Assembly (NCBI GenBank): GCA_029856365.1
Contig: JAHQWW010000057.1
Location: 1-22,527 of the forward strand
Source: Candidatus Hodarchaeota archaeon
Lineage (GTDB): Archaea > Asgardarchaeota > Heimdallarchaeia > Hodarchaeales > Hodarchaeaceae
Reading direction: 5' to 3'
DNA length: 22,527 nt
Shown: positions 2,531 to 5,492 of the stretch, piece by piece
Layout: each line of letters opens with the position of its first letter
How positions within the stretch are numbered: the first letter of the stretch is position 1
Made by a program: the position numbers and the translations under genes
The notes under the pieces: model-generated
What the model saw: only the letters and a program-made list of their open reading frames with translations
Databases searched by the model: none
What the model was told of the DNA's origin: nothing

Positions 2531-3202
2531 TTAGTCTGGGATGATTGTACGGATTTTTTTGAGTTCCTCTACCATCTGTTTCCGCAAAATAGCAATTCCT
2601 GTAGCTCTATCGCTCTCCCGTTGTGGTCTGGAGGATCCAAGTGGATTACTGGTCAGGTAACTTTCAGTAACAGTGTTAGAAGATGTTATTGTGGGTTTTG
2701 ATGGTCTTTCTGACACGATTAAAGGAGGTGGGGTAGGTGGTGCCTTGGGTGGTGAGGGTGGCAATTTAGGTGAAAGGGAAGGAACTGATGGTGGCTTAGA
2801 CGCTGGTTCTAATGGGGGTGGGCTTTGTATAACTTTCTGTTGAGGTTCTTCAGCTTGAATCTGTTTAATTCTAGAGGTTATTTCAGGTTCACTTGTTTTT
2901 AATTCAACTGCTCTCGAATAAAATAAGGTCTTTAGAGATGGCACATTTGGGATTTTACAGTGACGAAATTTCACTAATTTCAGTTCTTGTGAGATTCGTT
3001 CGAATGTGTAGAATGAAATATAATTTTCTAGTAAAGATTCTTTTAAGAAGTGATCCAATTCTGTTAATCCCTTATGAAAGGCGTGAATGACGTGGGCATA
3101 TTCTTCAAGCGGTAAATTCTTTAAATGTAAGGAGGTATTAAATTTTAAAGATGTTTTTTGTTTCTGTCCTGATTTTTTAAAGAGCCTGACCATCTCACAC
3201 AT
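2531..3202 (-). CDS. Proline-rich protein with C-terminal amphipathic helix (WH2/MIM-like candidate)
   Basis: 17 of 34 residues are Pro at 2723-2824. C-terminus is RATGIAILRKQMVEELKKIRTIIPD. Confidence 0.7.
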   Translation of the reverse strand: MCEMVRLFKKSGQKQKTSLKFNTSLHLKNLPLEEYAHVIHAFHKGLTELDHFLKESLLENYISFYTFERISQELKLVKFRHCKIPNVPSLKTLFYSRAVELKTSEPEITSRIKQIQAEEPQQKVIQSPPPLEPASKPPSVPSLSPKLPPSPPKAPPTPPPLIVSERPSKPTITSSNTVTESYLTSNPLGSSRPQRESDRATGIAILRKQMVEELKKIRTIIPD

Positions 3203-3594: not shown

Positions 3595-4278
3595 ATGAAC
3601 AACAATGAGAAACAAGATTCTCCTAGAAAACGAAGATTGGAACGAGAACGTAAACAGCGTCGAGATGATATTATTAAAACTGCTGAATGGTTCTTCATAA
3701 ATCTGGGATATGACCAAACGATGATTGATCGGATTGCACTTCAAGCGGGCTATAGTAAAGCAACGATCTACAATTATTTTGACTCAAAAGATGATCTCTT
3801 TATAGCTGTGGTATCTAAGGCTTTTGAGAAAATGTTTCAAATCATGAAAAAGGCAATGACTGCCTCTGACGTGAAATATGAGTTACGAACTCTTGGGGAT
3901 GCTTATCTAACCTTTGTTGAAGAATATCCTGATTATGCAAGACTCTTTGAATCAGGCAGATTAAATTTGGTTATTGGAAAAATGATCATAAAAGAAGAGA
4001 CTAGTCAAATCTTGACTGAAAGCGAAAAAGAATTTCGATATTACCAATTGAAGATTGAGAAACTCATGATTAGCGTTATCACGGAAACAATGAAAAATTC
4101 AGGAGTTCAGACTAAGATAGATCCGTTCTCGATTGTGATGGCTCTTAGTACTCTCGGGTCAGCGATCAACGAATTAGTAATGCGTGGAAAGAGAAGTCCA
4201 TCAGAAGATAGATCTCAAGAATACTTGGCAGTTTTATTCAATATTATAGACAAGGGATTGAAGCATTATGATGATTAG
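3595..4278 (+). CDS. TetR/AcrR family transcriptional regulator
   Basis: IIKTAEWFF..GYDQTMIDRIALQAGYSKATIYNYFDSKDDLF is a canonical TetR HTH. Confidence 0.95.
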   Translation: MNNNEKQDSPRKRRLERERKQRRDDIIKTAEWFFINLGYDQTMIDRIALQAGYSKATIYNYFDSKDDLFIAVVSKAFEKMFQIMKKAMTASDVKYELRTLGDAYLTFVEEYPDYARLFESGRLNLVIGKMIIKEETSQILTESEKEFRYYQLKIEKLMISVITETMKNSGVQTKIDPFSIVMALSTLGSAINELVMRGKRSPSEDRSQEYLAVLFNIIDKGLKHYDD

Positions 4279-4317
4279 GTATTGTACTATTTTAAAAACG
4301 AATGAAAGTGGATTAGA

Positions 4318-5007
4318 ATGTACAATATGAGCGATTTACCATCTATTAACGTGAATGATTCCGTGAGGAATAATATTCTCATGGGTTTAATGATCTTACA
4401 AATTTTATCATTATTGAGCGGATATTTCCTTTCCTCCCCTGGTATCATTGAAGGAACCGAGTTAGGACGTATTATTTTCCTCCTGTTTATTCTTTCTGAG
4501 GTTCCAATTGTGGTCAATTACTTCTACTTCGTTACTGTTAGATTAGGATTACCAACAGATAGCATTTCGAATGTTTTTGCAGCATATTATACTCCAAGTC
4601 TGATATTCCATAGTGGAATTTATACAATCGTGATAGGGCTTACAGTTGCACACATATTATTATTAATACAGCAATCGATATATTGTATGATCTTTATTTT
4701 CATCCTAGGGCTTTTATGGGTAATTGACTATATTCTCTGGTTTAGAAATTGGCCATTATATCCTAGAAGTGATCAGAACGTTGTTTTCCTATATTGGCTT
4801 CAATGGACAGTATTATTTGGCACATTAATAGGATTACCTTTCCATGTTAGAACTTGGAGCTTATTTTGGGTAAGCGTATTTCCTACATTAACATTTGGTT
4901 CGCTATTGATAATAATTTTCCTTGATTTGCGGAAGAAGAAGACGAATACCCAAAAAATGGAGAAATTAGAAACTCAGAATCCTATTACTCAAGTGATCAA
5001 GGGGTGA
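4318..5007 (+). CDS. Multi-pass membrane protein (about 6 TM), unknown function
   Basis: Multiple long hydrophobic segments. Operonic between TetR and flavodoxin. Confidence 0.75.
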   Translation: MYNMSDLPSINVNDSVRNNILMGLMILQILSLLSGYFLSSPGIIEGTELGRIIFLLFILSEVPIVVNYFYFVTVRLGLPTDSISNVFAAYYTPSLIFHSGIYTIVIGLTVAHILLLIQQSIYCMIFIFILGLLWVIDYILWFRNWPLYPRSDQNVVFLYWLQWTVLFGTLIGLPFHVRTWSLFWVSVFPTLTFGSLLIIIFLDLRKKKTNTQKMEKLETQNPITQVIKG

Positions 5008-5012
5008 AGTGA

Positions 5013-5492
5013 ATGGTACGTGCATTAATATTATATCATTCTCTCTTTGGGAATACCAAAGATGTTGCTCTTTGTTTAGCCCAAGGAATGGAGAAATTAG
5101 GTATTGAAACAGCTTGTTTGAGTATTGATGAGGTTGATATTAATCAAATACCAAATTATGACTTTCTAGCAATTGGAGGACCGACTCACATGATAGGATT
5201 ATCTAAAGCAATGAAGGTCTTTTTGACGAAGCTCAAAAGCGTTAATCTGCATGGAATAAAAGGATTTGCTTTTGATACTAGAAACCATTCTCGATTAAAT
5301 AACAAAAGGTGGTTCATCCTTGAAAATAGTGCTGCGAGAAAGATTGAAGGAAATATGAGAAGAATGAAGATAGAAATCATTAAACCTCGACAGTCAGCTA
5401 TTGTATATGGTCGAGAAGGGCCACTCGAATCTAATGTGAAAACATCATTTCAAGAAATAGGAAAAGATATCGGGAACATTCTTGGTTCCTAA
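5013..5492 (+). CDS. Flavodoxin family protein
   Basis: YHSLFGNT FMN-phosphate loop, IGGPTH and AFDTR motifs. Confidence 0.92.
   Translation: MVRALILYHSLFGNTKDVALCLAQGMEKLGIETACLSIDEVDINQIPNYDFLAIGGPTHMIGLSKAMKVFLTKLKSVNLHGIKGFAFDTRNHSRLNNKRWFILENSAARKIEGNMRRMKIEIIKPRQSAIVYGREGPLESNVKTSFQEIGKDIGNILGS

Follow-up and report, generated by a model that had tools for sequence, protein, structure and literature searches.

Asgard archaea possess actin, profilin, gelsolin, ESCRT proteins and small GTPases, and to our knowledge almost nothing is known of how the actin, ESCRT and GTPase machines of these organisms are linked to membranes. Short C-terminal peptides that dock on a partner have several precedents, including the MIM tails of ESCRT-III proteins (PMC9477494), the E3B peptide of CdvA (PMC12818579) and the C-terminal helix of arcadin-2, which binds the groove of archaeal actin (PMC5173319). 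Longer helical MIMs and proteins bearing two types of MIM are also known (PMC9477494), and a further type, MIM2, has the consensus phi-P-x-phi-P-x-x-P-phi-P (PMC5840170). For a Heimdall profilin, weak binding of polyproline has been published (PMC8410842).

The window analyzed here, the whole stretch of 22,527 nucleotides at positions 1 to 22,527 of contig JAHQWW010000057.1 of Candidatus Hodarchaeota archaeon (GCA_029856365.1), encodes a protein, P0001, that belongs to an undescribed family. Its members end in a helical module which, with its tethered-arm design, has so far been found in Asgard archaea only. We found no description of the module or of its protein family in the literature, P0001 has no Pfam or NCBIfam match (hmmscan against Pfam at E ≤ 1), searches of PDB sequences with the family profile and with the module profile returned nothing meaningful, and the ESM Atlas gave no usable match to the N-terminal domain. 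Approximately 50 homologs with identities of 34–77%, all from Hodarchaeales or Heimdall-type Asgard MAGs, keep the same layout, indicating that P0001 is under selection. Nearly all of the aligned homologs begin at the residue aligned with Met4 (alignment A1, comprising 30 homologs of P0001 with an overall identity of only 36–40%), so the protein probably starts at 3193, at the second ATG of the reading frame (3191–3193), and comprises 220 rather than 223 amino acids. A TTTATAAA box is found approximately 100 nt upstream. The features of P0001 are collected in Table 1.

Table 1. Features of P0001 and their positions in the window.
Feature	Residues	Position	Strand	Basis
P0001 open reading frame, 223 aa		2531..3202	(-)	stop-free translation
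Basic-hydrophobic N-terminus M-V-[KR]-L-F-K-K, near-invariant		3173..3193	(-)	alignment A1
Helical N-domain	30-118	2849..3115	(-)	AF2 model m5ce57a8bf75e
Disordered Pro/Ser/Thr-rich spacer	121-174	2681..2842	(-)	AF2 and composition
Degenerate P-K-I-S-F-P remnant	168-175	2678..2701	(-)	alignment A1
C-terminal module	195-221	2540..2620	(-)	A1 conservation, hhalign, profile searches

In the N-terminal segment, conservation reaches 90% or more at M4, V5, L7 and F8 (A1), and the AF2 model has low pLDDT there. We infer that this segment may bind membranes peripherally, and it may resemble the N-termini of ESCRT-III proteins. The initial annotation described the N-terminus as globular-looking, in agreement with a confidently predicted helical domain (pLDDT 83–94 for residues 31–90, AF2 with a 30-sequence alignment) in which helices are placed at residues 32–58, 64–73, 76–80, 88–94 and 105–118. 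Residues E33, E34, Y35, H37, F42, L53, E55–L57, E59, T66, P85 and F94 of the domain are invariant in A1, and a conserved I-P-x-x-P-S ... L-F motif closes it.

Residues 120–190 are predicted to be disordered (AF2), and across the homologs the spacer varies freely in length and sequence and keeps its Pro/Ser/Thr composition (A1). A 34-residue tract with 17 prolines, followed by a Ser/Thr linker, had been annotated in this region, and both are present, the tract corresponding to residues 127–160 (2723–2824) with a longest proline run of 3. This density of proline has a binomial tail of 3.5e-15 at the background frequency of 0.041 found in genome ORFs of at least 100 aa. Only one further ORF of the genome reaches 17 prolines in 34 residues, and it bears the same C-terminal module; both of the most proline-rich 34-residue segments of the genome sit in module carriers. 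The arm of the main soluble clade of the family holds two short motifs, I-S-F-S-F-P and I-P-K-I-S-F-P (A1). One I-S-F motif is left in the clade of P0001, and P0001 itself has lost the first motif and key residues of the second, T171 and S174 occupying the K and F positions of P-K-I-S-F-P. P0001 is a member of a derived and diverged paralog clade of the main soluble clade. Its clade is present in a minority of the genomes of its genus, and its own genome also has a main-clade copy, cut by the contig end at C132.

The best-conserved part of every carrier is the C-terminal module. In P0001, residues 194–220 are modeled as one uninterrupted helix of 27 residues (pLDDT approximately 88, AF2). The helix foreseen at the extreme C-terminus therefore stands as a helix but not in its position, since it comprises residues 199–218 (2549–2608) and five residues follow. 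The module core, S/T-G/S-I-A-x-L-R-x-x-M-x-x-E-L-x-K/R-I/L-K/R, forms an amphipathic helix. Fourteen of its positions in P0001 are invariant in A1 (D198, A200, G202–R207, Q209, M210, E213, L214, I217 and R218), and the single-pass membrane carriers have an invariant F-A-K-S-T-S-I-A-x-L-R at less than 30% identity elsewhere. On a helical-wheel reading of A1 and A5, the conserved residues lie within one arc of 180 degrees and the opposite face is variable; R207 and R218 border one edge of the hydrophobic stripe formed by I203, L206, M210, L214 and I217, and E213 borders the other. Comparison of A1 with the single-pass membrane family A3 gave an hhalign probability of 96% (E 4.5e-9) in the module region only. 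A first module profile was built from the last 45 residues of the P0001 family, and a search of 1.84 billion representative proteins with the module profile recovered 90 clusters at E ≤ 1e-3. The core pattern could be placed in 63 representatives, and in 62 of these the matched core is followed by 9–17 residues. The module is real and portable, and it almost always stands at the C-terminus.

Module carriers differ in what precedes the helix. In the Hodarchaeales they are polytopic membrane proteins of approximately 560 aa, often encoded as a tandem pair (in the present genome at C152:9256–10956), in the Heimdallarchaeaceae (the P0053 family) and several other families they are single-pass membrane proteins of 280–360 aa, and in other lineages they are soluble proteins of 200–260 aa. 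Soluble and membrane forms share the same order of a helical region, an L-F motif, a Pro-rich arm and the helix. Single-pass and polytopic forms have homologous cytosolic hairpins (probability 97%), and the two forms are likely counterparts, given that the genes for both adjoin a ribose-5-phosphate isomerase gene (RpiA). Homology of the P0001 N-domain to the membrane-form hairpin was also considered and is not established (hhalign E 0.023, probability 2%; tblastn E 0.002). Two carriers depart from the single terminal copy, a Ras-family GTPase (P0199) with two module copies flanking a P-P-P-P-P stretch and P0137 with three tandem copies at its N-terminus; the gene contexts of both were uninformative. 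Three tandem membrane proteins on contig C89 have similar tails, whose match to the module profile lacks significance (E 0.9). In a second Hodarchaeales family, 5–9 consecutive prolines are kept ahead of a similar terminal helix, and an hhalign probability of 44% is no more than suggestive of a link between this family and the module.

Conservation of the motif across Asgard archaea, which the initial annotation had proposed to examine, is borne out by the profile search. The module is near-invariant, and a profile built from all of its forms matched in 166 of 300 sampled Asgard genomes, including 20 of 20 in the genus of P0001. Every named carrier found comes from an Asgard MAG. Several Asgard families are near-saturated for the module, and others, with both actin and ESCRT, have few or no matches (f11, 3/76; f21, 0/5; f24, 0/7); for f11, the presence of actin is taken from its published generality in Asgard archaea. 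The scarcity of the module in these three families indicates that any docking target can do without it in some lineages. In most lineages a genome has a single carrier, which argues against the module joining different carriers together; the genome analyzed here has four canonical carriers and a possible, diverged fifth. Genes neighboring the carriers give no pointer to a partner; they encode TetR, a membrane protein and flavodoxin in the clade of P0001, inositol-1-phosphate synthase in the main soluble clade, and RpiA next to the membrane forms. No conserved actin, profilin, gelsolin or ESCRT neighbor was found at the carrier loci with scanned flanking genes.

The terminal position of the module, its variable and floppy arm, the interchangeable anchors and the presence of mostly one carrier per genome are together the signature of a docking peptide. 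We infer that the module binds a different protein rather than pairing with itself or attaching to lipid, and we favor the reading, at a probability of roughly 55%, that P0001 and the other carriers are membrane-associated scaffolds presenting a tethered docking helix. P0001 would then be a soluble, possibly peripheral-membrane, member of a family of tethered-helix proteins. In such proteins a small helical domain would bear a flexible Pro/Ser/Thr-rich arm, about 60–150 residues long, ending in an amphipathic helix of approximately 25 residues with a single conserved face. We predict that this helix serves as a docking peptide for a groove in some conserved protein of the cytosol, that the arm sets its reach, and that the N-terminal part fixes the location to which this partner is brought, which in most carriers would be the cytoplasmic face of the membrane.

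A near-invariant peptide on the Pro-rich arms of at least five kinds of anchor amounts to a eukaryote-like arrangement of a disordered arm and a short linear motif. The suggestion of a eukaryote-type adaptor is supported insofar as a Pro-rich arm with a conserved C-terminal interaction helix recurs on unrelated anchors, and fails with respect to WH2. A broader proposal, which we put forward tentatively, is that the Pro-rich arm and its terminal helix form an Asgard-wide adaptor which, anchored by transmembrane, GTPase or peripheral parts, couples membranes to actin and profilin or to Vps4 and ESCRT, as an archaeal forerunner or analog of WASP/VASP and IST1-type adaptors, whose disordered arms and short motifs organize membrane remodeling in eukaryotes. 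Once found, the partner of the module would identify a hub of Asgard cell organization, and if it proved to be actin or Vps4, such adaptors would predate eukaryogenesis.

The first candidate partner to be weighed is Vps4. In this case the Vps4 MIT domain would receive the helix as a motif of MIM1 type or of the longer type 3, and the carriers would recruit or titrate Vps4 at membranes in the manner of ESCRT-III tails. We consider this unlikely. Like the MIM1 tails of the Vps2/CHMP1/IST1 class, the module is a short C-terminal amphipathic helix behind a disordered linker, with Leu/Ile/Met followed by Lys/Arg; however, the module carrier is not an ESCRT-III protein (neither P0001 nor its family matches Snf7, PF03357, and the N-domain consists of some 90 residues in short helices), its helix has roughly double the length of a MIM1 tail, and the profile similarity is not significant. 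The ESCRT cluster of the genome is located on contig C32, with the Vps4 MIT domain at L040:1483–1737. ESCRT-III tails of the Heimdallarchaeia share [DE]-[LI]-x-x-E-[LI]-x-x-[LI]-[KR]-[KR], in which E replaces the R of eukaryotic MIM1, and the second half of the module fits these class tails, reading M-x-x-E-L-x-x-I-R in P0001 and E-M-x-x-E-L-x-x-L-K-K in the membrane forms. Measured against the MIM1 consensus [DE]-x-x-L-x-x-R-L-x-x-L-[KR], the segment M210-x-x-E213-L214-x-x-I217-R218 of P0001 fits at the hydrophobic and final basic positions, whereas E takes the place of the central R and there is no acidic residue upstream.

Pattern counts in the same genome point the same way, the strict tail pattern occurring in the last 25 residues of 8 of 3456 ORFs, among them the 205-aa ESCRT-III gene of C32 and a polytopic module carrier, and the loose pattern occurring 14 times against 4.7 expected; K/E/L-rich helices, however, match such patterns easily. 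In the Heimdallarchaeaceae the membrane form and one ESCRT-III protein both end in L-K-K-x-M-S-E, but the likeness of tails is lineage-matched in one family only, and lineage-matched co-variation between module and ESCRT-III tails was accordingly dropped. In family G034 a carrier gene follows a gene for EAP30 (ESCRT-II-like), an adjacency seen at only one of the scanned loci. The I-P-N-V-P at the end of the N-domain recalls the first half of the MIM2 consensus, but MIM2 was rejected for P0001: I84-P-N-V-P88 fits that half only, the third proline is K91, and in the main clade T frequently stands at the second phi.

The profile comparison, in contrast, does not favor MIM1. Alignment of ESCRT-III tails with the module gave an hhalign probability of 21% in another register, the module profile has no ESCRT-III match in the genome at E ≤ 20, and ESCRT-III tails have nothing that corresponds to the conserved first half of the module, S-T-S-I-A-x-L-R. 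Conservation of the module also far exceeds that of MIM tails or MIT domains, the latter having approximately 30% identity between families. The MIM1-like helix of the initial annotation thus appears to survive at the level of pattern only, where it agrees with the class's ESCRT-III tails in its hydrophobic and basic residues. A predicted complex of the Vps4 MIT domain (A4) with the module (A2) speaks neither for nor against binding (score 0.28, mark 0.32). A second MIT-AAA ATPase (G000:C36, L041:433–1752) was rejected as partner because its MIT region is present in 6 of 20 genomes of the genus and the module in 20 of 20. The idea that Vps4 is lacking in module-bearing lineages with small genomes was refuted, since 5 of 5 such genomes have MIT-bearing frames of Vps4 size and 4 of 5 have Snf7.

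Self-association is the next possibility, in which the helix would cluster the carriers as a dimeric to tetrameric coiled coil and need no separate partner. The spacing of hydrophobic residues is heptad-like (203, 206, 210, 217 and 220), R207, E213 and R218 could make salt bridges between chains, and the four canonical carriers of the genome, with the possible fifth, could pair through the module. VASP offers a parallel, having a tetramerization helix at its end, after a Pro-rich region. Nevertheless, an invariant Glu occupies a d-like position of the central heptad, a plain coiled coil would seldom stay near-invariant from class to class, and most genomes have a single carrier. Self-association at the far end of an arm of 60–200 residues also seems redundant for carriers that already have a helical hairpin of an oligomerizing type. 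We therefore regard it as rather improbable; were it correct, the module would define a set of clustering membrane proteins, which is of narrower interest.

The third candidate partner is actin, either through a polyproline and WH2-like unit binding profilin and actin monomers as in WASP/VASP, or through looser docking in the hydrophobic groove as in arcadin-2. As in the WH2 and polyproline proteins WASP, WIP and VASP, P0001 places a Pro-rich tract ahead of an amphipathic helix that contains L-K-K (here L-K-K-I). The genome encodes one actin (C27:6105–7211) and one profilin, some carriers have real proline runs of 5–7, the second Hodarchaeales family has its longer run before the helix, and the three tandem copies in P0137 recall tandem WH2 arrays. 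Actin is also 76–84% identical across the module-bearing families, and in comparison with the MIT domain at approximately 30% it better suits a near-invariant ligand.

P0001 nevertheless departs from the WH2 pattern of WASP, WIP and VASP. The WH2 profile (PF02205) had no match in P0001 (E ≤ 1), nor in a sample of 131 related proteins comprising 47 A1 and A3 members (30 family and 17 membrane-form members; E ≤ 0.5) and 84 A6 representatives of module carriers (E ≤ 0.001). The L-K-K column is not conserved, L214-K-K-I of P0001 being aligned with L-D-R, L-R-R, L-S-R or I-K-R in other carriers, and the 27-residue helix is continuous, with no break ahead of L-K-K and no extended LKKT segment (AF2). 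On these grounds membership of the WH2 domain, and with it the WH2-like helix proposed earlier, was rejected. Proline runs in the P0001 family do not exceed 4 and form no conserved motif, synteny with actin, profilin or gelsolin was not seen at the scanned loci, and the module was found in only 3 of 76 f11 genomes although actin is general in Asgard archaea according to published work. Arcadin-2 of Pyrobaculum calidifontis (PDB 5LY3; PMC5173319) is likewise archaeal and docks in the hydrophobic groove through a conserved C-terminal helix alone, but it belongs to a different phylum, has no Pro-rich arm and needs a Trp that is absent from the module; no sequence relation between the two was detected, the arcadin-2 peptide being too short for the chain set searched. 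We judge docking of the module in the actin groove, in either form, to be improbable.

Least likely by far is an amphipathic helix that binds the membrane by folding back against the lipid. The module is indeed amphipathic, it carries a net charge of +2 to +4, and membrane proteins are frequent among its carriers. Its hydrophobic moment is low (0.23–0.33), however, carriers with transmembrane helices need no second anchor, and strict sequence conservation with invariant D198, R207, Q209, E213 and R218 would not be expected of a lipid-binding helix.

The tethered docking helix that we favor has a further counterpart in CdvA of the Sulfolobales (PMC12818579; PDB 9s9g), which likewise comprises a helical hairpin or coiled coil, a flexible linker and a short recruiting C-terminal peptide. 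P0001 differs in having no PRC barrel (no Pfam PRC match and an all-helical model), and its terminal peptide, unlike E3B, is a helix. The E3B peptide is said to complete the winged helix of CdvB, a result credited to Samson et al. 2011; the ESCRT-III genes found in the present analysis encode approximately 205–220 aa and have no apparent extra C-terminal domain. In fold comparisons of the P0001 N-domain with the ESCRT-I steadiness box (Vps23/Vps28/Vps37 headpiece), the top Foldseek rows were chains of 6vme and 2f6m with weak E values of 1.4–3, and VIA-align of P0001 gave Z 5.7 for 2caz_E, 5.5 for 6vme_C and 5.1 for 2f66_A, all below the informative level for helical matches. Alignment to 9s9g_A gave Z 5.1 (rmsd 2.1, 55 residues) for P0001; the membrane form reached Z 9.6 (rmsd 1.6, 64 residues), and for it 172 chains have Z ≥ 8. 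Headpiece chains of ESCRT-I and CdvA stand near the top of the fold matches for the N-domain and the membrane-form hairpin. Because such scores are no higher than helical hairpins in general can give, the likeness to the ESCRT-I headpiece and to CdvA is a lead only. One membrane-form member also has a weak match to the Pfam CdvA profile (E 7.8e-4 to 0.0023).

Of all the proteins encoded by the genome that holds the window (G000), the one best placed to be a genuine profilin-binding polyproline protein is the product of a gene on contig C9, a member of a second Hodarchaeales family. Four parts are conserved across its 37 homologues, namely a helix at the N-terminus, an uninterrupted stretch of 5-9 Pro, an acidic motif (E-V-E-D-L-A-A-L-A-F) and a terminal helix of the form S-L-K-M-E-L-M-x-E-L-K-K-K-F. 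Compared by hhalign with the module, the amphipathic helix that closes the window protein P0001, the family gave a probability of 44% and an E-value of 2.4e-4.

Features discussed in the text, with coordinates and strand
Feature	Location	Strand	Description
Polyproline-family gene	G000:C9:25206-25805 = L084:3207-3806	+	Second Hodarchaeales family, 37 homologues
[ST]-[LIV]-F-[DEG] motif	window 2918-2951 (residues 84-94)		Just ahead of Pro-rich arm
Three membrane-protein genes in tandem	G000:C89:12583-14647 = L083:3581-5630	-	Each ~225 aa
P0137	L081:9001-10035		344-aa protein, unusual carrier of module
P0199	L082:957-2006		Ras-family GTPase, unusual carrier of module
Divergent neighbours of P0001	window 3595-5492		TetR-family regulator, 229-aa polytopic protein without family, flavodoxin
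MIT-plus-AAA ATPase besides Vps4	G000:C36, L041:433-1752	-	439 aa, second such gene

The short motif [ST]-[LIV]-F-[DEG] of P0001 recurs in soluble, single-pass, polytopic and other soluble proteins bearing the module (instances include L-F-G-S, S-L-F-D and S-I-F-E-E), and may be a second conserved linear motif of this carrier superfamily. Two carriers are unusual in architecture: P0137 has three tandem modules spaced ~40 residues apart at its N-terminus, and P0199 has a Cys-rich C-terminus and two copies on either side of P-P-P-P-P. The tandem proteins of contig C89, each judged by eye to have two TM helices and a PH-like cytosolic domain, all have tails resembling E-M-L-x-E-L-R-E-I-K-x-x-L, akin to the second half of the module, with no significant match to its profile (E 0.9).

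Genes of membrane-anchored carriers adjoin ribose-5-phosphate isomerase A in several Asgard families (loci L031, L032, L033, L036, L039 and L009), the polytopic form of Hodarchaeales among them, and in genome G034 an EAP30 (ESCRT-II-like) gene lies immediately upstream. Beside P0001 itself, the TetR-family, polytopic and flavodoxin genes keep their order next to its orthologue in another species (L017); they make up a short block of conserved gene order that shows no obvious connection with P0001 or the module. The counterpart in a related genome (G011:C24:50020-50624) of the derived paralogue to which P0001 belongs looks like a pseudogene, with two TGA, three TAA and one TAG in-frame stops, and this paralogue therefore seems dispensable. 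The C36 ATPase is an accessory paralogue, because its MIT region was found in only 6 of 20 genomes of the genus.
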